NCBI RefSeq assembly: GCF_024298765.1
Contig: NZ_CP101210.1
Strand: one strand, 5' to 3'
Source: Escherichia coli
GTDB lineage: Bacteria > Pseudomonadota > Gammaproteobacteria > Enterobacterales > Enterobacteriaceae
Length of the DNA: 64,000 nucleotides
The notes beneath the pieces are model-generated. The model was not told where the DNA came from. It searched no databases and saw only the letters and a list, made by a program, of their open reading frames with translations. The position numbers and the translations under genes are program-made. Shown in pieces: positions 1 to 15,945 of this stretch (position 1 is its first letter; the number at the start of each line of letters is the position of its first letter).

Positions 1-88
1 AGTTTTGGTACAACAAGTCTAGCCAGTTTACTAAAGTTCAACCTATGCCTCAGCTTAGTAATTCCACAAGGCTCATTGACGAAATAAT

Positions 89-1534
89 ATGTCAAATAGG
101 TGTGCTTCTATGAATGAGCCAGCTAATCGTACAGTAAATAATTTGAGAAAGAGCGGAGACCTGCAAGGGGCTTGGGAGTTTGGTTTTCAAGCGTTGCAGG
201 CAGCTCCCCAAGATACTTACTTGAAAGGTGCTTTATTTTGGGTGTGTTATGAGTTTCTTAAGCACCAGCTTGAAAATCTAAATAAGCGAGCGAGTTCTTC
301 AAACAACTATCGTCCTACTGATTTTGAATTTGAGCAAATAGAGAACTTGCTGCAAACCATAGTAAATTTAGATATTGCTACTGGCGGCCTAGAGTACAAA
401 ATGCTGCTGGTTCAGTTTAAGAAGAGTTTGGAATGGTTTCCAACCTTGATTCACCTTGTGCTTCGACATCAAACTGTACTATTTGATGATGAGGCTAAAA
501 CACCTTTTCAAGCTGAAAAAGGTGAAGTGCCAAGTTTGATGCTCTCAACAGCACGCCAAGTGGCGAGTGCATGGCTTAGAGCACGAGAGTATTGGCATCT
601 AGATCTTAACCAAGTGATGGCATTTATTAACCAAACACGCGAGCAAGCCTCTGACACTAAACATATGATGTGGCTTGATTACGACCAAGCGAAGTGCCTT
701 GTTGTTGCGGGCCAATACGATCAGGCTCGCGAACTCATTCTACCCATTTTAAGAAAGAAGCAAAAAGAGTCTTGGGCTTGGGGAGCGTTGGCTGCTACTT
801 ATTCAAAACAAGATCAGCGTTTAGCAATGAAGTTTTTTGCTAGGGGAATAGTATCCGCACATGACGTTACTTTTAGTTTACGTTTATTACAGGGAATTAT
901 TCCTTTATTACTTGCAAATCAACAGCAAGCTGAAGCCTCAATGTGCCTAAAAACGGCTATTGCGGCTTATCAAGCCCATGGGTGGAAGCTAAAGCAAGAG
1001 CTAGAACAGCTATCTATGCAGGCTTGGTATGATTCTGGTGTCGATGAGAAGCAACTGAGTCCTTTTTTAAACTCTATTTCTCACGACGCTTTAAATTACT
1101 TGCATGGGCCGATGGAGAAGGTTGTTGCTATCGTAGAGAATATCCATAAATCCGGTAAAGGCTTTCAAGTATTCGTAAATAAGTCGACATCACTATCAGT
1201 TCGCATGGGGGTTCATAAAGGTAAGCAGAAACCTCAGGCTGGTGACTATGTCGAGCTATCCGTAGCGAGTGTTGATGGAAACAAAGAAGTAGTAGCTTCC
1301 TCATCGTCCAAGCAAGTAGATATGGCTGATGTTTCGTATGTAGAGGGTACGCTTCGAATAGCACCCAAAGGCTTCGGATTTGTCGAGGATACTTTTGTTC
1401 CTCCCTTTGTTATAGGTAATTTAAAAAATGAAACAAAAGTCAGAGCACTCCGTATCATGAGTTGGGACAAATCTAAAGCTCGCCACAACTGGAAAGCGAT
1501 TAAGTTAACGGAACTAAATTTTAATGAAGACTAA
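89..1534 (+). CDS. hypothetical protein, 481 aa, with C-terminal cold-shock/OB-fold-like segment
   Basis: Long ORF with RBS-compatible context. C-terminal segment contains a KGFGFV motif resembling the cold-shock domain KGFGFI signature, preceded by a second beta-rich segment. No enzymatic motif recognised. Confidence 0.5.
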   Translation: MSNRCASMNEPANRTVNNLRKSGDLQGAWEFGFQALQAAPQDTYLKGALFWVCYEFLKHQLENLNKRASSSNNYRPTDFEFEQIENLLQTIVNLDIATGGLEYKMLLVQFKKSLEWFPTLIHLVLRHQTVLFDDEAKTPFQAEKGEVPSLMLSTARQVASAWLRAREYWHLDLNQVMAFINQTREQASDTKHMMWLDYDQAKCLVVAGQYDQARELILPILRKKQKESWAWGALAATYSKQDQRLAMKFFARGIVSAHDVTFSLRLLQGIIPLLLANQQQAEASMCLKTAIAAYQAHGWKLKQELEQLSMQAWYDSGVDEKQLSPFLNSISHDALNYLHGPMEKVVAIVENIHKSGKGFQVFVNKSTSLSVRMGVHKGKQKPQAGDYVELSVASVDGNKEVVASSSSKQVDMADVSYVEGTLRIAPKGFGFVEDTFVPPFVIGNLKNETKVRALRIMSWDKSKARHNWKAIKLTELNFNED

Positions 1535-1591
1535 GTCACTTTCCGGCGAAATCGAGTTAGGACAGGCTCAAGAATTAGCCGAGGTCGAATA

Positions 1592-1688
1592 ATGGCAACC
1601 CGAGTAGAAATGATTATCGAAACGCTCAAGGCGAACCCCGACAAGAAGTTTACTGCTCGGGACTTAGCCAAAGAATTTGTGCTTCGAT
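1592..1688 (+). pseudogene. 5' fragment of an ORF (MATRVEMIIETLKANPDKKFTARDLAKEFV...) truncated by the IS903 insertion
   Basis: ATG at 1592 preceded by GAGG, 58 bp after the stop of the 481-aa ORF. Reading frame runs directly into the IS903 left inverted repeat at 1689. No continuation recognisable after the IS. Confidence 0.4.
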
Positions 1689-2745
1689 GGCTTTGTTGAA
1701 TAAATCGAACTTTTGCTGAGTTGAAGGATCAGATCACGCATCTTCCCGACAACGCAGACCGTTCCGTGGCAAAGCAAAAGTTCAAAATCACCAACTGGCC
1801 CACCTACAATAAAGCCCTCATCAACCGTGGCTCCATAACTTTCTGGCTGGATGATGAAGCTATTCAGGCCTGGTATGAGTCAGCAACACCTTCTTCACGA
1901 GGCAGACCTCAGCGCTATTCTGACCTTGCCATCACGACTGTGCTGGTCATTAAACGCGTATTCAGGCTGACCCTGCGCGCTGCGCAGGGCTTTATTGATT
2001 CCATTTTTTCTCTGATGAACGTTCCGCTACGCTGCCCGGATTACAGCTGTGTCAGCAGGCGGGCAAAGTCGGTTAATGTCAGTTTCAAAACGCCCACCCG
2101 GGGTGAAATCGCACATCTGGTGATTGATTCCACCGGGCTGAAGGTCTTCGGTGAAGGCGAGTGGAAAGTCAAAAAGCATGGCCAGGAACGCCGCCGTATC
2201 TGGCGTAAGCTGCATCTCGCCGTTGACAGTAAAACACATGAAATCATCTGTGCAGACCTGTCGCTGAACAACGTTACGGACTCAGAGGCCTTCCCCGGGT
2301 TAATCCGGCAAACCCACCGGAAAATCAGGTCAGCCGCCGCCGATGGCGCTTACGATACCCGGCTATGTCACGATGAACTGCGGCGTAAGAAAATCAGCGC
2401 GCTTATCCCTCCCCGAAAAGGTGCGGGTTACTGGCCCGGTGAATATGCAGACCGTAACCGTGCAGTGGCTAATCAGCGAATGACCGGGAGTAATGCGCGG
2501 TGGAAATGGACAACAGATTACAACCGTCGCTCGATAGCGGAAACGGCGATGTACCGGGTAAAACAGCTGTTCGGGGGGGCACTGACGCTGCGTGACTACG
2601 ATGGTCAGGTTGCGGAGGCTATGGCCCTGGTACGAGCGCTGAACAAAATGACGAAAGCAGGTATACCTGAAAGCGTGCGTATTGCCTGAAAACACAACCC
2701 GCTACGGGGGAGACTTACCCGAAATCTGATTTATTCAACAAAGCC
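1689..2745 (+). mobile_element. IS903 (IS5 family), complete 1057-bp element
   Basis: Terminal inverted repeats GGCTTTGTTGAATAAATC at 1689 and its reverse complement ending at 2745. Internal transposase ORF. No 9-bp target duplication in flanks (TGCTTCGAT vs GTTGCCAAA), suggesting an adjacent deletion. Confidence 0.9.
1721..2689 (+). CDS. IS903 transposase
   Basis: Translation (MKDQITHLPDNADRSVAKQKFKITNWPTYNKALINRGS...) is the IS903/IS5-family DDE transposase as recalled. Confidence 0.9.
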   Translation: MKDQITHLPDNADRSVAKQKFKITNWPTYNKALINRGSITFWLDDEAIQAWYESATPSSRGRPQRYSDLAITTVLVIKRVFRLTLRAAQGFIDSIFSLMNVPLRCPDYSCVSRRAKSVNVSFKTPTRGEIAHLVIDSTGLKVFGEGEWKVKKHGQERRRIWRKLHLAVDSKTHEIICADLSLNNVTDSEAFPGLIRQTHRKIRSAAADGAYDTRLCHDELRRKKISALIPPRKGAGYWPGEYADRNRAVANQRMTGSNARWKWTTDYNRRSIAETAMYRVKQLFGGALTLRDYDGQVAEAMALVRALNKMTKAGIPESVRIA

Positions 2746-3282
2746 GTTGCCAAACCTGAAATAACACTTAGCTGTGATGATTCGCTATTACCTACCGATG
2801 GCTTCGGAAAACATAAATTAAAAATGCCCAGAGGAGTACTATTATCGTTAGCATTACCCGAACGCCGTATTAACGGTTATTTATTGGTAAGAGCTACGTT
2901 CCATGGCAAGAGTTCATCAACAGGTTGGAAGGCCATTCCGGCAAAACTCTCAGTATATGGCGCAGATACCATTCAGACAGCAGGTCCCGCTCAGCCCGTA
3001 CAGTAGAGCGCCGTTCACTACCGTAATCGCTACCGAAGAACACATTGATTGCCCCTCAATAATCCTGCTGTTAACATCAAAATTGTTGGTCGGGCTCGAT
3101 TTATTTAATTGTGTAAACAGGGTCTCTCAGAGAAAGGCCCTTATGCATCACCTGACGTTAAAAGTCACTACACCCAAGATGACGTTCAAAGTGTCATAGT
3201 CCCCTGCGCTGAGGACAAAGCCACACGTTAACGACAAATCCACGCGATAACTTACGATAGTTCGGACATAAGCCCCCATAAT

Positions 3283-3846
3283 TCAGTTATGTCGTGGTCG
3301 GCCGCGGTTACTTTTTTCGGGAAGCCTGCTACGGCCCAGAATAATACCGTGTTCTTTCTGATCTTGTTTAGCCAGATAGCTAAGGGCGTAACGTAAGTCG
3401 TCTACCGCAGACTTATCACTATAGTGAATCACGTGATCGATACGCACCGGGTATTTATCTTTAGCCCGGCACAGGTGAAAATAACCCTCCCCTTCCGTGA
3501 TCCGCCTCCAGATATCCCCCAGTTGCCTGGATATCTGATAAGAGTTCTTGTGACGTTGCCCATCCAGATAGCCGATAAAATGAATATGAAGCCCTTTGTC
3601 TGGTGTATATTCCATAACCCAGTAATATCCTGCCAACATCGTCTGGGTTTCGCTAAGTAAACGGTATATTTCCATACACATACTGTGCTTACAGGAATGC
3701 CCGAAACTGGGCGTGTCTTTCCTGTAGGCAAAATCAATTCTGAAAGGTAACAGTTTAGAAAAACGTTGAAACAATCCCTCCATGTGTTCATTCACATCTT
3801 TCAGAATCGCGAAATTCATTTCGTAATTGGGATTGGCATTATACAT
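3283..3846 (-). CDS. YagK/YfjJ-family (inovirus Gp2-like) prophage protein
   Basis: 187-aa ORF whose sequence resembles the YagK/YfjJ family found in CP4-type cryptic prophages. Sits in the same order as in CP4-57 (alpA, yfjI, yfjJ). Confidence 0.5.
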   Translation of the reverse strand: MYNANPNYEMNFAILKDVNEHMEGLFQRFSKLLPFRIDFAYRKDTPSFGHSCKHSMCMEIYRLLSETQTMLAGYYWVMEYTPDKGLHIHFIGYLDGQRHKNSYQISRQLGDIWRRITEGEGYFHLCRAKDKYPVRIDHVIHYSDKSAVDDLRYALSYLAKQDQKEHGIILGRSRLPEKSNRGRPRHN

Positions 3847-4735: not shown

Positions 4736-6187
4736 TCAGAGGTCAAAGTTAGGTGCGACACACAACGTTTTTCCCTCAATAACCGGTACAACTCTGTTTT
4801 GTTCATACAGTAAATCCAGTAACCAGTTGATTTTATCCTTTTTCCGGAAACGGTTCGGACCACGCTGTAAAATATCATTTTTTTTCATACAGGGGATCCC
4901 CTTCTCAATGCAATAGCTTTTTATCCAGTTGAAAAGTTCAAGCTCCTCTGGAATGAGTCGCACAGGTACGGTCAGGGCAGGGTTGTCAAAAGTTAACGGA
5001 TTAGACAACCGCACATACTCATTACCGTACCATATTGCTAATTCTCTCGCCATTTCTGCAGTGTAAGGGGAAATGTCCCCCTCTTCACCGCTCGAATGGT
5101 GAATAAGTCCTGCCAGTCTTGCCATATACTCTGCATTTTTAGCAGCATATTCCCGGCAATGTCTTAAAGGCCCCAATCCCCCCAGCTTCGATTCCACATC
5201 GTTGTAATAATCCGTCCAGATTCTGGCAGCCTGAGGAGAAAAGTGAAGGCAACGTCGTTCACCACTCATCGCCAGATTTTCATCAATAAGCTCATTGATC
5301 CTCTGTTCAAACAAATCCTGATACTGTGATGAATAATTATCTCCGGTTATTATCCTTGTCCCCTGCGTTGATGTTGGTTGACACATCAAAAACCTTGCAT
5401 GATGTCCTGACGTTTTCACAAGTTCTTTTTTTCGCGTACAAAAACCTTTCTGGTAAACATCAGGCTGAATCATCACCGATACCGTCAGTCTTGGATCCTT
5501 CAAAATAATTCCGGGAGATGATTTCCTGTCGATGAAAAGAGAACCACCATCCCACAAAGAGTTAAGTATTCCAAGTTTACTCATTGCCCGGCCATCAAAA
5601 ATTATTCCTCCTTCACTGGATACAAGAGCAAAAGAGCGATTGCTGTCGGAATAATATTTTAACATTCCCTCTATCGTTGTCTCATTGAAAATTGTCCGGC
5701 GTATCTGCGGCGGAACAGGACATTTATTCAGATGTCTTTTAAGCTCTGACTCTGTTGCCTTACAATCTTTACCGGCGCGAATTTCTTTATGCAATTTTGA
5801 CTCCAGTGCTTTTTGCTTTTGCTCCCATATTTCCTTTTCTGTACTGTAATTCTCAACCAGTTTCGCGTATTCTTCCGCCAGGGCTTCATCCCTGAGATAA
5901 AATGCTTTCATAAACACTTTATCCACGGTCGTTTTCCTTTCACCGGAATCAGCCAGAATCAGAGAGTAAAGATTAACAGGCCCACGTAAATTTCCAGGTC
6001 TGCACACGTCAATCTGATTCTGACAGGCACTTGAGAACGCTGTTAATGCGGATGTCGCCACCATAGCCAAAGGTGCCTGTGTATTTTTTTGAGTTTCAAT
6101 TATTGCATTTCTCACCAGCGGTGGTAGTGCATATACCGGATAAGGATTTTCTGGTGCAAGTAAGCACATAAAAGCCTCTCTTTTCAT
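4736..6187 (-). CDS. YfjI-like prophage protein
   Basis: 483-aa ORF immediately downstream of an AlpA-family gene in the canonical CP4-57-like order. Family assignment is by position and size recall only. Confidence 0.45.
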   Translation of the reverse strand: MKREAFMCLLAPENPYPVYALPPLVRNAIIETQKNTQAPLAMVATSALTAFSSACQNQIDVCRPGNLRGPVNLYSLILADSGERKTTVDKVFMKAFYLRDEALAEEYAKLVENYSTEKEIWEQKQKALESKLHKEIRAGKDCKATESELKRHLNKCPVPPQIRRTIFNETTIEGMLKYYSDSNRSFALVSSEGGIIFDGRAMSKLGILNSLWDGGSLFIDRKSSPGIILKDPRLTVSVMIQPDVYQKGFCTRKKELVKTSGHHARFLMCQPTSTQGTRIITGDNYSSQYQDLFEQRINELIDENLAMSGERRCLHFSPQAARIWTDYYNDVESKLGGLGPLRHCREYAAKNAEYMARLAGLIHHSSGEEGDISPYTAEMARELAIWYGNEYVRLSNPLTFDNPALTVPVRLIPEELELFNWIKSYCIEKGIPCMKKNDILQRGPNRFRKKDKINWLLDLLYEQNRVVPVIEGKTLCVAPNFDL

Positions 6188-6417
6188 TAATGGGTTAGTA
6201 AAGCAGCAGCAACTCCCGCTATAATAGCGAAATAGCTGCTGTTCAGACCTAATGTTCTGAGAAATACAGAATATCTGTAGATCTGATGTTTAATAAACCG
6301 ATAAGGTTAATTCAGTTCATACTGTGTTATTTACCACGAAATATCATTCATGTTTCTCATTCTTAACACCTCCTAAAATTATTTCACTAACACCTTCCCC
6401 CCGGTCTTTTTCCTTTC

Positions 6418-6999: not shown

Positions 7000-7669
7000 T
7001 ACTTTTTATTTCCGGCATGAGCATGAAATGACTAAGTTTCCCGGATAAACAATGAGTGAAAGTCACTATCATTCATCCAGTCAACGCCTTGCAAATAAAA
7101 TGTAATACTATGATTTTTATAGGTCAAAATACTAAATTACAATGTTAAAATGGCTTTTAACAGAAAAAATAAAGACATATGGAACCAAATAAAAACAAGC
7201 CACGACCAATAAAAACAAAAGATTAATATTAAAAATCCATTATGACGATTTTTGTTGACTAAAATTAGGTTGGGATATATAAATAAATCCATGTAAAATT
7301 CAAACAAGGCATAGAGGAGCCGCAGGAAGGTGAAATATTTCCATCTAATTTGTGATAATCATCACAAAAATAAGCTACAACAAGCGGAGGAAAAGACAAT
7401 CTGTTGCTGAACAGACAGAAGCAGGCTACGAATGATCGGAAAATGAAGCAAATACGCTTATACAGAAGACGCAGAGGTAACTGACGGAGACAATCACAAT
7501 CAGGAGAAAATTATCGTAAATAATGTATAAAATCTCAGGATATAAACAAATGTACACAAGCTATCCACGTAATCAGCGGCTGGCTCAGGATTGACGTTTC
7601 ATTTCAGTGGACAACATCGATTCTGTCTGACAGCGGACCAATATGTAGCAAGCAGAAACTTCTGACATC

Positions 7670-9307
7670 ATGGTAACTCGGACAATGCAACAAAAGTATC
7701 AGTATGATCGTGTTTTATCCGGCGAACTCCACCCATTCCCTGGCATATACGAGGCGGTTTCCGAACAAATCCTTTTGCTCATTTTTAAAGCACGTCAACT
7801 ATATCAGGATCCAGAATATCGCCCCTGGTTTGAAGAACAGCACAGAGTACTCTCTGCATTACGTGCCAATACAGAGCTCCTGAGAATCTTTAGAGAACAA
7901 AGAAGCGCTGAAGAACCAAAGCTTACTATTGAAGAGTCTACCTCCCCCCAACCCACTCCTTCTGCTCTTACAGATGCGCTTAATGTGATGTGCCATTTAT
8001 ACAATGGTTTTGATGAAGGAAATATCAGTCTGAAAACCTGGGGGGCGATGCAAGAGGTACAGACAACATCAACCTTTATCAGCCCAGGACCGAGAACCTG
8101 GAAAACACCTGAACTGGCAAAGTTTGTAGGAGATGATTTATTTAATATTCTGACTGAATGTAAGGCCTGGAGTTCACCAATTCCAGCAGAAACCCGACAG
8201 GGGTATTGCCATCAGGATCTGTCTGTTGCACACTCCTGCACCTCAGAGTTACTGGCACACCTGAATCAATATCATGAAATTGATGAATCAGCAATACTTG
8301 CCAGAGTTATTGGTATAACAGTTAACGGATTCTACAAGAAAAATAATACAGACCTTCCAGAATGGCTATCCCCCTTTAAAGAGGAACATAAAATATTCAA
8401 AGATTGTCCGGAGCAAAATACCGGGGATGTAATCAGACGGAAAGAACAACTGTTGAAAACAGGACGTACAGAATTCGTGAATAATTTGTGTCGGGTCGCC
8501 AACTGGTATGAAATTGAGTCAATATACGATGAATACGTCCGTCTTTATGCCAATGAAATCATTGACTGGTTCAACAAAACCATGAAGTATTTTAAACCAA
8601 CAGATTTTATCCGATATACATGGAAATTCGCAACAGTTACTCCGGATAAAGATACAGAAACCGGGCATACAACTGCATGGGAAAAGGATTATTGCCAGAT
8701 AACCATACAACGTGATGAACTTCTGAGGTTGATTCACACTAATACCCTTCAGGATGCTGTAATTTATCTTTGTCATTGTCTGCAGGAGAAATACAAGAAA
8801 TCATCCCAGAATGAGACAGAGTTTCCAGGAATAAAACCTCCGGCATCAGAGAGTGAAATTAATATAACAGATAATTTTGAATTTCATTCTCTTCTGGAGC
8901 TAAGTAAAGATAATGAGAAGCGGCTGGAAACATTTCAAAAATGGTATGAAAAAAATAAAGTTTTGTTAGAAAGTCATAAACAAAAACGAACAGAGAAGAT
9001 TGACGTTGCCGTACGACTTGTAGGGCTGAAAGCCTATGATCTGCATGAAGGGATTCCGGATAGTCCAAAACGAAAAGTTAAAGATGGCATAAATGAAGAC
9101 ATCAAAGCCGATACCAGTTTACGCCTGTCAAAGACAAATATAAGTGATACGTCGCTAAACCGTTATCGCCGCACTGTTAAGGAGATTATCAATAACGAAA
9201 TCGACGCATTCCTGTTGGAACAGAAGAAAAAAAATAAAAGATTTCCCTACAGTGAAGATAGAGATGTGATTCGCCCTTTATGGGGAAAATGCCTGACCGG
9301 GCAGTAG
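7670..9307 (+). CDS. hypothetical protein, 545 aa, AT-rich, no recognisable motif
   Basis: Long uninterrupted ORF in AT-rich DNA preceded by about 650 bp of AT-rich non-coding sequence. No Walker, HTH or catalytic motif recognised. Confidence 0.5.
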   Translation: MVTRTMQQKYQYDRVLSGELHPFPGIYEAVSEQILLLIFKARQLYQDPEYRPWFEEQHRVLSALRANTELLRIFREQRSAEEPKLTIEESTSPQPTPSALTDALNVMCHLYNGFDEGNISLKTWGAMQEVQTTSTFISPGPRTWKTPELAKFVGDDLFNILTECKAWSSPIPAETRQGYCHQDLSVAHSCTSELLAHLNQYHEIDESAILARVIGITVNGFYKKNNTDLPEWLSPFKEEHKIFKDCPEQNTGDVIRRKEQLLKTGRTEFVNNLCRVANWYEIESIYDEYVRLYANEIIDWFNKTMKYFKPTDFIRYTWKFATVTPDKDTETGHTTAWEKDYCQITIQRDELLRLIHTNTLQDAVIYLCHCLQEKYKKSSQNETEFPGIKPPASESEINITDNFEFHSLLELSKDNEKRLETFQKWYEKNKVLLESHKQKRTEKIDVAVRLVGLKAYDLHEGIPDSPKRKVKDGINEDIKADTSLRLSKTNISDTSLNRYRRTVKEIINNEIDAFLLEQKKKNKRFPYSEDRDVIRPLWGKCLTGQ

Positions 9308-9393: not shown

Positions 9394-9990
9394 TTATGCG
9401 GCTTTTCCATTAACAGATTCGGCCACAAGAACAACACCGTGTTTGTTTCGATCAGGATGTTCACTCCAGATTTCTGATTCAGGAATACTTTCCCCATCAT
9501 AGCAGATCCGATCACCATCAAACGAATAATACCGTGCGGAATCTGTATCTAAGATAAACACCTTAAAATTCGTTGAACGACGCGCTATATGCTGCCAGAG
9601 GGCTTTACCTCCTTCATATTGCTCGTTATCACTTAATAGTATAACGCCTGCTTTTGTGGCTATTGTTTCATAAACAAACGTAGCAAGGCTAACATCACGT
9701 ACAGCGCCATCGACAACAATCCCTTCAATCTGAGCAACGTCCTGTTCTTCCCAGAATTTCCGGACAAACACCCCTTCAAGCTGTGAACGACGCTGAAGCT
9801 CCAGAGTGGCAACAACCTTATGGCGAATATCACCATCAATAACAGAAGGTGCAGCTTCGATTACCGCAGCGAACGGAGTCTTTGGATCCCAGATGATCTG
9901 GTAAAGCACACCCTGAATAGTTACTCCATCCAGTATCGAAAAACGACGAGCTACAGTAGCAGGGGAGTAAGACATTGGAATGACAGCCAT
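9394..9990 (-). CDS. hypothetical protein, 198 aa
   Basis: ORF convergent with the 545-aa gene, located between it and thrW where an island integrase would be expected. No family recognised. Confidence 0.45.
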   Translation of the reverse strand: MAVIPMSYSPATVARRFSILDGVTIQGVLYQIIWDPKTPFAAVIEAAPSVIDGDIRHKVVATLELQRRSQLEGVFVRKFWEEQDVAQIEGIVVDGAVRDVSLATFVYETIATKAGVILLSDNEQYEGGKALWQHIARRSTNFKVFILDTDSARYYSFDGDRICYDGESIPESEIWSEHPDRNKHGVVLVAESVNGKAA

Positions 9991-10300: not shown

Positions 10301-10376
10301 TGGTGCCGATAATAGGAGTCGAACCTACGACCTTCGCATTACGAATGCGCTGCTCTACCAACTGAGCTATATCGGC
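10301..10376 (-). tRNA. thrW: tRNA-Thr (anticodon CGT)
   Basis: Reverse complement reads GCCGATATAGCTCAGTTGGTAGAGCAGCGCATTCGTAATGCG...TTCGACTCCTATTATCGGCACCA: cloverleaf with CGT anticodon and encoded CCA. Position next to proA matches thrW. Confidence 0.95.
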
Positions 10377-10490: not shown

Positions 10491-11744
10491 TTACGCACGA
10501 ATGGTGTAATCACCAATGCCGATCCACTTATAAGTGGTCAGTGCTTCCAGCCCCATTGGGCCGCGCGCGTGGAGTTTTTGTGTGCTTACCGCAACTTCCG
10601 CCCCCAGTCCAAACTGGCCGCCGTCGGTAAAACGCGTAGAGGCGTTAACGTAAACAGCGGAGGAATCCACTTCGTTAACAAAACGCTGGGCGTTGCGCAT
10701 ATCGCGGGTCAGGATCGCATCGGAGTGTTGCGTGCCGTGTTCACGAATATGGGCGATGGCATCGTCAAGATCGCTAACGATTTTGACGTTCAAATCTAAT
10801 GACAGAAACTCATCGTCATACTCTTCGGCTTTAACCGCCACCACCTTCGCGGGGCCTGTCTGCAACTGCGCCAGTGCACCTGCATCAGCGTGTAACGTCA
10901 CGCCACTTTCCGCCATTTGTTTGCTTAATGCGGGCAGGAAACTATCGGCGATGTTTTTATTCACCAGCAACGTTTCAACCGTATTACATGTGCTCGGTCG
11001 CTGAGTTTTCGCGTTGACGATCACTTTCAGGGCTTCAGCGATCTCTGCACTTTCATCAACGTAAATATGGCATACGCCTATACCACCTGTGATCACCGGG
11101 ATCGTCGACTGTTCGCGGCACAGTTTATGCAGGCCAGCGCCACCGCGCGGGATCAGCATGTCGATGTATTTATCCATACGCAGCATTTCACTGACCAGCG
11201 CGCGGTCAGGATTATCAATCGCCTGCACGGCACCCGCCGGTAAGCTGCAGGATTTCAGGGCGTCCTGAATCACCGCTACCGTTGCAGCGTTAGTGCGACA
11301 GGTTTCTTTGCCGCCGCGCAGGATCACCGCGTTACCGGTTTTCAGGCACAGGGAAGCAACATCAACCGTCACGTTCGGGCGCGCTTCATAAATCACGCCA
11401 ATCACCCCCAGCGGCACGCGACGGCGCTCCAGACGCAGGCCGCTGTCCAGTACGCCGCCATCGATTACCTGCCCCACCGGATCGGCGAGATTGCACACCT
11501 GGCGCACATCGTCGGCAATGCCTTTCAGCCGTGCGGGCGTCAGTGCCAGACGGTCAAGCATCGCTTCGCTAAGGCCATTGGCACGCGCGTCTGCAACATC
11601 CTGCGCGTTAGCGTTGAGGATACTTTCGCTTTGTGCTTCCAGTTCATCGGCGATTTTTTCCAGCACACGATTTTTTTCGCGGCTGGAGAGTTGCGCTAAT
11701 TTATACGAGGCTTGCTTCGCGGCAATGCCCATTTGTTCCAGCAT
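10491..11744 (-). CDS. proA: gamma-glutamyl phosphate reductase
   Basis: 417-aa translation matches ProA. Synteny with proB. Confidence 0.95.
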
Positions 11745-13147: not shown

Positions 13148-14203
13148 ATGAAAAAGAGCACTCTGGCATTAGTGGTGATGGGCATTGTGGCATCTGTATC
13201 CGTACAGGCCGCAGAAATATATAACAAAGACGGTAATAAACTGGATGTCTATGGCAAAGTTAAAGCCATGCATTATATGAGTGATAATGACAGTAAAGAT
13301 GGCGACCAGAGTTATATCCGTTTTGGTTTTAAAGGCGAAACACAAATTAACGATCAACTGACTGGTTATGGTCGTTGGGAAGCTGAGTTTGCCGGTAATA
13401 AAGCGGAGAGTGATACTGCACAGCAAAAAACGCGTCTCGCTTTTGCCGGGTTGAAATATAAAGATTTGGGTTCTTTCGATTATGGTCGTAACCTGGGCGC
13501 GTTGTATGACGTGGAAGCCTGGACCGATATGTTCCCGGAATTTGGTGGCGACTCCTCGGCGCAGACCGACAACTTTATGACCAAACGCGCCAGCGGTCTG
13601 GCGACGTATCGGAACACCGACTTCTTCGGCGTTATCGATGGCCTGAACTTAACCCTGCAATATCAAGGGAAAAACGAAAACCGCGACGTTAAAAAGCAAA
13701 ACGGCGATGGCTTCGGCACGTCATTGACATATGACTTTGGTGGCAGCGATTTCGCCATCAGTGGAGCCTATACCAACTCTGATCGTACCAACGAGCAGAA
13801 CCTGCAAAGCCGTGGCACAGGCAAGCGTGCAGAAGCATGGGCAACAGGTCTGAAATACGATGCCAATAATATTTATCTGGCAACTTTCTATTCTGAAACA
13901 CGTAAAATGACGCCAATCTCTGGCGGCTTTGCCAATAAGACGCAGAACTTTGAAGCGGTCGCTCAATACCAGTTTGACTTTGGTCTGCGTCCATCGCTGG
14001 GTTATGTCTTATCGAAAGGGAAAGATATTGAGGGCATCGGTGATGAAGATCTGGTCAATTATGTCGATGTTGGTGCTACGTATTATTTCAACAAAAATAT
14101 GTCAGCGTTTGTTGATTATAAAATCAACCAACTGGATAGCGATAACAAATTGAATATTAATAATGATGATATTGTCGCGGTTGGCATGACCTATCAGTTT
14201 TAA
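13148..14203 (+). CDS. phoE: outer membrane phosphoporin PhoE
   Basis: Translation ([21 protein letters not shown] signal peptide, porin body ending MTYQF) matches PhoE. Confidence 0.95.
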
Positions 14204-14211
14204 TGGATATT

Positions 14212-14232
14212 GCCGGATGTGATGCATCCGGC
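14212..14232 (+). terminator. hairpin downstream of phoE
   Basis: Inverted repeat GCCGGATG-TGATG-CATCCGGC 8 bp after the phoE stop. T-tract is weak. Confidence 0.4.
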
Positions 14233-14241
14233 ACATTTCAT

Positions 14242-14700
<459 letters not shown>

Positions 14701-15945
14701 TTAACACAACCGTTTTTCGATCCAGTCTGTGATTTCCTGAAGGCCTTTGTCAAAATTCCGATACACCGGGTTAAATGGGATCTCTAATAATTTACCGTCA
14801 GCAGATGACGACGTGATTAAGCGTGAGTCCTCTTCCGGGCTGAACGGATCGTTCTTCCAGTAGCCTGATAACATTGGCGTTGGGCAGCGACGTCCCAGCA
14901 ATCCTTGCACTTTTAATGAATAGCGATTCAACTCCACTCGCAACGCTTCATCGGAAGCATCATGCATCCCTAAACGACTGGCCAGAACGTCAAGATACAT
15001 TTCCGGCACCTGTTGCTGGCACTTAAAATCACTCAACAGGGTATGAACTACCGGACCAAGACAGGCAACCACTTTCAGACGCGGCGATTCAAGGTATGCC
15101 AGACGCACGGCAACGTTAGCGCCGAAACGGAAACCAAAGGCCGCGACGCGAGTGTGATCCACCCACGGTACGTTAGGCAGCGCCTTTAAAACGTGCTGAT
15201 GCAACAGGCTGGAGTCCTGGGTGAGCTTCCATTTTGAAGAAAAGCCCACCGACGGCATATCAATAGTCAGCATAGCAATGCCGCGCGGCGCAAAATAACG
15301 TTCATACAGGCTGTAATAGTCCGTCTGCATCGCATCCAGACCACCACACATTAATACTGTCGGGAACGGGCCATCGCCTTTCGGCATATGCAAAAAGCCG
15401 GTGATGGGCGCACCGCCGGGTACGGTAAACTCCATCTGCCGCATCGTGCCCGGCAGACGCTGAGCGGCCTCTTCATAGGCGCGGTTTGACAAAGCCTGCG
15501 CTTGCTCGGCCAGGTCATCTCCTTTCAGATGAGGATAGGCAGCAATGTTGTACAACGTAGCCGCATGCAGCCAGTGTCGACCGCTGAGTTGCGGATCTTC
15601 TTCCGCACAGGCTTTTTGTTGCCACACCATCGCCTGGGTAGCCCACTCATAAATCCAGTTGCCGCCGCGGTAGCCAATCACCGTATCGTATAAATCATCG
15701 TCGGTACGTTCGGCATCGCTCATCACAATACGCGCCTGGACGTCGAGGATTTCACGGGGGTCAATGCCGCGCCAGATCCACATCAGACGGTTAATCATGC
15801 GATACCAGTGAGGGATGGTTTTACCATCAAGGGCCGACTGCACAGGCGGTTGTGCGCCGTGACTAAAGCGGCGGACTAGCGTCGAGGTTTCAGGATGTTT
15901 AAAGCGGGGTTTGAACAGGGTTTCGCTCAGGTTTGCCTGTGTCAT
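14701..15945 (-). CDS. frsA: fermentation/respiration switch esterase FrsA
   Basis: 414-aa translation matches FrsA (alpha/beta hydrolase). Confidence 0.9.

Follow-up and report, generated by a model that had tools for sequence, protein, structure and literature searches.

It is very probable that the left end of the Escherichia coli DNA studied here carries one part of a predicted anti-invader gene pair of the TOTE type (PDC-M16 in PADLOC), that the pair was once nested in a type I restriction-modification (R-M) operon, and that the hrgA gene whose fragment now follows it was part of that host operon. The DNA is a 64,000-nucleotide stretch of contig NZ_CP101210.1 (assembly GCF_024298765.1), called the window below. 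The pair consists of a helicase-TBP gene, represented in the window by its 3' end, and of the gene directly downstream of it, which encodes a 474-aa protein with a TPR solenoid and two OB folds and is here called the TPR-OB gene. A preliminary description of positions 89 to 1688 had seen a two-gene module, possibly a defense system in an island, made up of the TPR-OB gene and an open reading frame (ORF) downstream of it. Half of that view stands: the TPR-OB gene is one member of a predicted two-gene defense module in a mobile island, but its partner is the helicase-TBP gene upstream. The correct pairing matters, as a mis-pairing could spread; the candidate system is the helicase-TBP gene plus the TPR-OB gene. 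The features on which the argument turns are these, in window coordinates:

3..113, plus strand: 3' end of the helicase-TBP partner gene, namely its last 36 codons and stop; the remainder lies beyond the window's left edge
110..1534, plus strand: TPR-OB gene, encoding a TPR solenoid and two S1/CSD-like OB folds, 474 aa (Pfam, PADLOC, AlphaFold, Foldseek)
1112..1306, plus strand: first OB (S1/CSD-like) barrel, residues 335-399, with KSGKGF inside (AlphaFold; weak PF22708 match)
1331..1513, plus strand: second OB (S1/CSD-like) barrel, residues 408-468, with the RNP1-like motif KGFGFV (PF22707, AlphaFold)
1530..1592, plus strand: relic of the 3' end of hsdS, the specificity gene of type I R-M systems (DNA ~87% identical to the Proteus/Vibrio hsdS-hrgA junction; tblastn; frame translation)
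1592..1688, plus strand: hrgA', the first 32 codons plus one nucleotide, a pseudogene fragment (identity to Shewanella chilikensis HrgA)
1689..2745, plus strand: IS903B (IS5 family), 1057 bp, with a transposase ORF at 1721-2689 (RefSeq annotation)

The upstream partner can be recognized from its tail. Translation of the 36 codons at the left edge (FWYNKSSQ...IGVLL, then the stop) gives the C-terminus of a 979-aa protein encoded in a near-identical locus (L001), with all 36 codons identical, and these codons alone (nucleotides 3-110) match the Pfam family TBP-TOTE (PF22721) at 30.4 bits versus a cut-off of 27. The 979-aa protein ends at the equivalent of nucleotide 113 in E. coli, Klebsiella and Salmonella records that are at least 99% identical to window positions 1-1688, and its TGA overlaps the ATG of the TPR-OB gene (ATGA at 110-113). 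The full-length partner matches PDC-M16A nearly end to end (1349 bits). Its layout, as seen in relatives, is an N-terminal DUF4145, an SF1B helicase of the RecD2/PIF1-like kind and two C-terminal TBP-TOTE domains, both copies of which are detected in the full protein (E = 1.7e-41). The helicase domain lies outside the window; in near-identical loci it matches AAA_30 (E = 1.2e-25) and UvrD_C_2 and has the Walker A motif GYAGTGKT.

A helicase-TBP gene stands directly 5' of the TPR-OB gene, with frames that touch or overlap, in nearly all of the related loci examined, and the exceptions are loci cut by an insertion sequence (IS) or by a contig end. We saw this adjacency in plasmids of E. coli, Klebsiella and Salmonella and in Psychromonas, Vibrio (including V. 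breoganii), Aeromonas veronii, several Shewanella, Pelagibaculum, Kineobactrum, Alcanivorax and others. The gene on the 3' side varies by locus and may be fdhD, a reverse transcriptase gene, a gene for an ankyrin protein or a RhuM-Fic protein, hsdR or hrgA. In Aeromonas the two genes occur alone, flanked by formate-dehydrogenase accessory genes, which shows that the helicase-TPR pair is a self-contained unit. Within the TPR-OB family the effector gene is exchangeable. V. hibernica has a TPR-OB gene 70% identical to that of the window, next to a different partner, a 913-aa protein with a NERD nuclease, a helicase and a single TBP-TOTE domain, and a RhuM-Fic gene before hsdR (locus L021, 7249-9990 and 11472-12473).

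The TPR-OB gene itself had been described as a 481-aa ORF. The frame is indeed open over 89..1534, but the ATG at 89 from which the longer reading began is an in-frame upstream ATG, and the start is ATG 110, giving 474 aa; the beginning M(N/S/T)E... at this codon is common to all 25 aligned homologs, and the RefSeq start agrees. That the ORF might be a fragment is countered by 159 homologs, mostly ~440-490 aa long, with a conserved core that extends to ...WKAIKL, beyond which the C-termini are variable. The protein matches PDC-M16B nearly end to end (E = 1.7e-251, 833 bits), as well as Pfam DUF7017 (PF22860, E = 3.5e-40) and S1CSD-TOTE-2 (PF22707, E = 3.6e-18). An AlphaFold (AF2) model built from 25 homologs (predicted local distance difference test score, pLDDT, of 91.9) consists of a helical-repeat solenoid over residues 1-332 (pLDDT >90) followed by two five-stranded beta-barrels. 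The best PDB matches of this model in Foldseek are TPR proteins, and the first barrel has a weak, sub-threshold match to S1CSD-TOTE-1 (PF22708, E = 0.015). The KGFGFV segment, which the preliminary description had likened to a cold-shock domain, is real. It is encoded at nucleotides 1367-1384, is nearly invariant and falls inside PF22707, "S1/CSD-like domain 2 of the TOTE conflict systems"; F422, G423 and F424 never vary among the 25 aligned homologs, and K420 and G421 hardly do. Nucleic-acid binding, suggested earlier from this motif, thus gains support as a prediction from the OB/CSD-type domains found by Pfam and in the model.

Two other identities for this protein were considered and set aside. 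A free-standing CspA-type cold-shock protein would have ~70 aa, whereas the motif here lies in a 474-aa multidomain protein and the Pfam family is the TOTE S1/CSD family, not CSD. A few RefSeq records from E. coli carry the label "M48 family metallopeptidase," which corresponds to a match of the TPR region to BepA at 12.5 bits versus a cut-off of 570; Pfam finds no peptidase domain in the protein, and the M48 name seems to derive from TPR similarity to BepA. The unannotated human-gut "Bacteriophage sp." record MT835724.1 encodes, at 13492-14886, a protein distantly homologous to the TPR-OB protein (22.6% identical across 93% of the length, E = 5e-16).

TOTE stands for TPR, OB, TBP and Effector, according to PMC12458937, which cites Aravind, Iyer & Burroughs 2022. 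The pair contains all four components: one protein supplies the TPR solenoid and both S1/CSD OB folds, the other an effector-type enzyme to which two TBP-like domains are fused. The effector is an SF1B helicase with an N-terminal DUF4145, in contrast to the RNase H domains that the same source gives as frequent in TOTE systems. With PDC-M16 the pair shares end-to-end matches of both proteins to the A and B models at the scores given above, the adjacency of the two genes and relatives in type I R-M operons; it differs in that the pair in the window is detached from any R-M genes, and PDC-M16 is a candidate only. The PDC candidates were identified through their location inside BREX, DISARM and type I R-M systems ("guilt by embedding"), in a preprint that reports seven validated systems and handles embedded cassettes as autonomous (Payne et al., bioRxiv 10.1101/2024.01.29.577857). 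The term PDC-M16 was not found in the main text of that preprint, nor PDC-M16, DUF7017 or TBP-TOTE in the literature searched. Another relative in kind is TALON, described as a YprA helicase, NERD nuclease, TPR-CSD and TBP, very rare and largely confined to Chloroflexota (PMC12458937). TPR-CSD and TBP components are common to both, and the helicase-TBP variant of V. hibernica also has a NERD domain, but the YprA helicase is missing from the pair here.

Judged by its domains, the pair would be a system that detects nucleic acids and acts on them. The two OB folds, with their RNP1-like KGFGF, would bind single-stranded nucleic acid of the invader, and the TPR solenoid would serve as a docking surface for either the helicase or a phage protein. 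We found no nuclease or toxin domain in either protein of the pair, so the helicase would be the effector. Driven by ATP, of the 5'-3' type and equipped with TBP-like domains that are predicted to bind nucleic acid, it would dismantle replication or transcription intermediates of the invader. The anti-invader activity is likewise predicted.

As for the ORF downstream of the TPR-OB gene, the preliminary description had noted a good ribosome-binding site and a short spacer before it. The ORF is real and starts at ATG 1592, 57 nucleotides past the stop of the TPR-OB gene, but the apparent spacer is an hsdS tail. In its own frame this relic reads TKSLSGEIELGQAQELAEVE followed by the stop, which corresponds to the last 20 hsdS codons, and its TAA overlaps the hrgA ATG (TAATG). 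Window positions 1531-1688 have 83%-87% DNA identity to Proteus, Vibrio and Shewanella plasmids, at a junction annotated there as restriction endonuclease subunit S followed by HrgA protein. The Proteus plasmid pZF2-cfr has the operon hsdM-hsdS-hrgA-hsdR, with the stop codon of hsdS overlapping the start codon of hrgA. A tblastn search over the first 12 kb of the window for type I hsdM, hsdS and hsdR genes found just the ~60-nucleotide hsdS tail.

Sequence inspection and RefSeq annotation agree with the earlier observation that IS903 cuts the ORF after 32 codons. Intact homologs in other genomes had been named as a check, and a scan of genome contigs located one, the full 309-aa hrgA, on a Shewanella chilikensis JC5 contig (L018). 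This contig is 98.8% identical to window positions 1-1688 and collinear into the intact gene (L018 11483-12412), the first 32 residues of which equal those of the window's ORF (32/32). There, 19 hsdR codons follow hrgA, and then comes another IS903-family element; a composite transposon was considered for S. chilikensis and rejected, the two flanking IS903-family elements being dissimilar to each other. Among the matches listed, neither E. coli genomes nor PLSDB plasmids have an intact hrgA beside the pair, and the enterobacterial copies end at residue 33.

HrgA corresponds to COG2958 (by NCBI and UniRef names), a family with >4000 homologs, and measures 309 aa when intact. The intact protein had no sequence match in Pfam, NCBIfam or PDB. 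In the family alignment P161-D162 and E195-V196-K197 are invariant, and in a low-confidence model (pLDDT 53) the N-terminus folds as a winged helix, ahead of an alpha/beta core. From these we read intact HrgA, with moderate confidence, as a winged helix plus a predicted PD-(D/E)xK nuclease. This supplies the domain content of the intact downstream gene, which the preliminary description had left to be worked out, and gives a first domain reading of HrgA/COG2958. Over its 32 codons the cut ORF is identical to HrgA as annotated in Vibrio, Shewanella and Proteus; its relationship to Helicobacter HrgA is distant. The name comes from the hrgA of Helicobacter pylori, which replaces a restriction endonuclease there. 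Here 32 of the 309 codons are left, whereas the marine versions lie between type I hsdS and hsdR. The surviving codons cover less than half of the winged helix and nothing of the nuclease domain, and the window holds no intact HrgA.

These findings bear on the module proposed originally, in which the TPR-OB gene and hrgA would form a two-gene toxin or defense system inactivated by IS903. We consider this module very unlikely. In its favor, the intact S. chilikensis locus has the two genes side by side in the same orientation, and HrgA, if it is a winged helix-turn-helix protein with a PD-(D/E)xK nuclease as predicted, could be the effector that the pair lacks. Elsewhere, however, the TPR-OB gene and hrgA are not co-conserved, the very outcome that the preliminary description had named as telling against its pairing, and the pairing with the downstream ORF is thereby refuted. 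In most other genomes examined hrgA is not 3' of the pair, and the gene in that position differs in most contexts, whereas the helicase-TBP gene is the near-constant neighbor. Conversely, in three plasmid lineages (Proteus, Vibrio and Shewanella) hrgA occupies the slot from hsdS to hsdR and the pair is missing. The hsdS relic that stands between the two genes in the window and the size of the COG2958 family also speak against a joint module.

The helicase-TPR pair and hrgA are linked indirectly, by way of the type I R-M operons in which the pair is embedded as cargo. Writing Hel and TPR for the two genes, the order is hsdM-hsdS-Hel-TPR-Ank-...-hsdR in Pelagibaculum, hsdM-hsdS-Hel'-TPR-RhuM/Fic-hsdR in V. 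hibernica and Hel-TPR-hsdR in Shewanella sp. 1CM18E, and in a metagenome-assembled genome of the Gammaproteobacteria a relic of the hsdR 5' end lies directly 3' of the TPR gene. In Aeromonas, Psychromonas and V. breoganii the pair has no R-M genes nearby. The repeated embedding might suggest that the pair is coupled to its host operon as a guard or back-up of type I R-M (and HrgA), in the manner of PrrC with EcoprrI, in which case loss of hrgA, hsdR, hsdM and hsdS would cripple or deregulate it in Enterobacteriaceae. DUF4145 of the helicase (residues 1-256) resembles the N-terminus of a type I HsdR family, with an NCBIfam PRK11448 match (E = 5e-28) that is far below the cut-off of that model, and PrrC is cited as almost exclusively R-M-embedded (Payne et al., 10.1101/2024.01.29.577857). 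PrrC-type genes are likewise cargo between hsdS and hsdR, but they have no sequence relationship to the pair, and we saw no sign of Hsd regulation of the pair. Moreover, the pair stands alone in the three genera just named for its lack of R-M neighbors, its block has spread over ~90 E. coli, Klebsiella, Enterobacter and Salmonella replicons without R-M genes, and embedded cassettes are regarded as autonomous in the same preprint (10.1101/2024.01.29.577857). On balance such coupling seems unlikely, and an autonomous TOTE-type pair remains the preferred reading.

An ankyrin-repeat protein gene (401-408 aa) and an ORF of ~193 aa without a Pfam match adjoin the pair in three unrelated genomes, on its 3' side in two and on its 5' side in one. 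They are probably another embedded cassette. Their positions are:

L017, 9477-11283: ankyrin gene and ~193-aa ORF
L019, 11473-13277: ankyrin gene and ~193-aa ORF
L024, 5325-7108: ankyrin gene and ~193-aa ORF

Copies of the hsdS 3' tail (LLPKLLSGEIEL...), some of them decayed, were observed directly before the helicase ATG and after the TPR stop, even at loci without R-M genes. They lie at the following positions:

Window, 1530-1592: hsdS-tail copy
L018 (S. chilikensis), 6253-6273, 7003-7023 and 11430-11480: hsdS-tail copies
L021 (V. hibernica), 7031-7057 and 11406-11432: hsdS-tail copies
L019, 6976-7035 and ~11424-11480: hsdS-tail copies
L012, 6015-6071: hsdS-tail copy

Of the three S. chilikensis tails, one closes an hsdS relic, another is fused to the C-terminal end of a 260-aa ORF, and the third follows the TPR gene. 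This ORF (L018 6277-7059), between the hsdS relic and the helicase gene, has no significant Pfam match, and at its C-terminus (...HSLSGEIEVSSF...) an hsdS tail appears to have been fused in frame. In V. hibernica an intact hsdS tail precedes the pair and another copy follows the TPR gene immediately; common to the two is a core of ~30 nucleotides, AAATTGCTTTC(G/C)GGCGAAAT(T/C)GAGTTAG. In Shewanella sp. Isolate11 decayed hsdS tails lie on both sides of the pair, with no R-M genes. The 90 nucleotides 5' of the helicase ATG are the best or near-best match to the HsdS tail in the 17-19-kb locus of Aeromonas, Psychromonas and V. breoganii, with empirical fractions of 0.0016, 0.0037 and 0.023, respectively; the values for S. 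chilikensis and Isolate11 are 0.0057 and 0.0015. No hsdS tails were found around the pair in the more distant family members examined.

This pattern of tails fits an ancestor positioned directly after hsdS. A bolder proposal, which we offer as a tentative possibility, is that the ~60-nucleotide "spacer" is a cassette boundary, the pair of this clade being bracketed by hsdS tails and carrying a decayed tail along even where R-M genes are missing. Embedded defense cassettes would then enter, leave and reshuffle in type I R-M operons by recombination between hsdS tails. In a Campbell-type event, a circle with one tail would integrate into another tail and so duplicate it. If this is true, the hsdS tail would be an attachment-like site for defense cargo, and it offers a checkable clue to the movement of R-M-embedded cassettes. 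The bracketing of a cassette by hsdS-tail repeats is modestly new; the components, TOTE/PDC-M16, HrgA/COG2958 and IS903B, are already described.

IS903B, which ends the hrgA fragment, has the size, the typical inverted ends (GGCTTTGTTGAATAAATC...) and the transposase of the known element, but differs in having no 9-bp target duplication. This absence had been noticed before and is confirmed by the flanks, TGCTTCGAT on the left and GTTGCCAAA on the right. The adjacent deletion then proposed to explain it does not hold up as well as a role of IS903B as a recombination hub, with a constant left junction and a varying right flank. In 44 plasmid records and 41 E. coli genomes the junction between hrgA' and IS903B is the same, which points to one ancestral insertion, whereas the right flank differs across the three contexts compared (L001, L003 and L033). 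IS903B joined DNA from two replicons, most likely via recombination between IS copies, and the origin of its flanks in separate replicons accounts for the missing 9-bp duplication. Adjacent deletions also occur, as in strain NT1N31, where ~480 bp next to IS903B are gone. Other E. coli strains have IS903B and the thrW island without the TOTE block, and the window's arrangement over 12 kb was found in two complete genomes only, 2020CK-00188 and 13P460A. Homology to Shewanella begins 24 bp 5' of the helicase ATG, and further upstream the enterobacterial copies have stbA and IS1. Window positions 1-1688 are the right end of a ~4.5-kb Shewanella-type block that was gained by enterobacterial plasmids and now sits in the thrW island. 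In the type I R-M operon from which it came, the pair stood with hsdS before it and hrgA-hsdR after it. In this way a block present on ~90 enterobacterial replicons is traced to a Shewanella-type type I R-M operon. The locus as it stands is an ordinary one, an IS-scrambled relic of catalogued families.

Several observations weigh against our reading of the pair as a defense system in this genome. The helicase domain is beyond the window, which contains only the partner's tail, and of the two genomes with the same arrangement over 12 kb, 2020CK-00188 has an intact helicase gene and 13P460A one that is cut by IS1; whether the pair works in the source genome depends on the helicase gene outside the window. 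The 5' edge of the hsdS relic (~1530/1531) falls exactly on the TPR stop codon. No experimental test of TOTE or PDC-M16 was found in the literature searched, so the defense role and the mechanism remain predictions. Finally, the block adjoins stbA on many Enterobacteriaceae plasmids, and helicases of the RecD2/PIF1-like kind also act in replication and repair, as might be expected if the pair were plasmid housekeeping, a replication or stability helicase with an accessory protein. We give this last explanation hardly any weight: stbA is outside the conserved unit, as the start of the Shewanella homology just upstream of the helicase ATG indicates, relatives of the pair are chromosomal, in R-M operons or between unrelated genes, and its domains are those of the TOTE conflict systems. 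A TOTE-type anti-invader pair therefore remains the reading we prefer.

To the right of IS903B the window continues with the end of the E. coli thrW island, and proA and proB lie beyond the tRNA gene. The features of this part are:

~2877-3043: remnant of a transposase pseudogene, annotated in the near-identical strain 13P460A
3283-3846, minus strand: inovirus Gp2-type protein
4736-6187, minus strand: YfjI/DUF3987 protein
7670-9307, plus strand: hypothetical ORF
9394-9990, minus strand: hypothetical ORF
10301-10376: thrW, tRNA-Thr (CGT), followed by proA and then proB

Two further records touch on the joint at the TPR stop codon. NZ_CP081699.1 (L006, 4815-6140) has a smaller relic, the hsdS tail plus 21 hrgA codons, 99% identical and lying between IS5 and IS1. 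Its IS5 abuts CTAA (equal to window positions 1531-1534), and IS1 cuts at window position 1653. CTAA is the usual target of IS5, and the flanks of this IS5, TTAG and CTAA, mismatch. An IS5 scar as the source of the 1530/1531 joint was considered and rejected; the copy in NZ_CP081699.1 was most likely derived from window-type sequence and is uninformative on the origin of the joint. Six plasmid records, of the IncHI2 type and others, match the window only as far as the TPR stop. In the one inspected, the Salmonella plasmid pATCC43845 (L005 9230-9430), an IS end lies at the TPR stop codon and provides a new TGA, so that the protein ends in ...NEY. With the IS end abutting the stop codon, this plasmid was ruled out as showing the native 3' flank of the TPR gene. 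The sequence at that point, TGAAGTGGTCAACAAAAACTGGCCACC, belongs to what we take to be an IS911-like element, and the element is itself cut by IS26.

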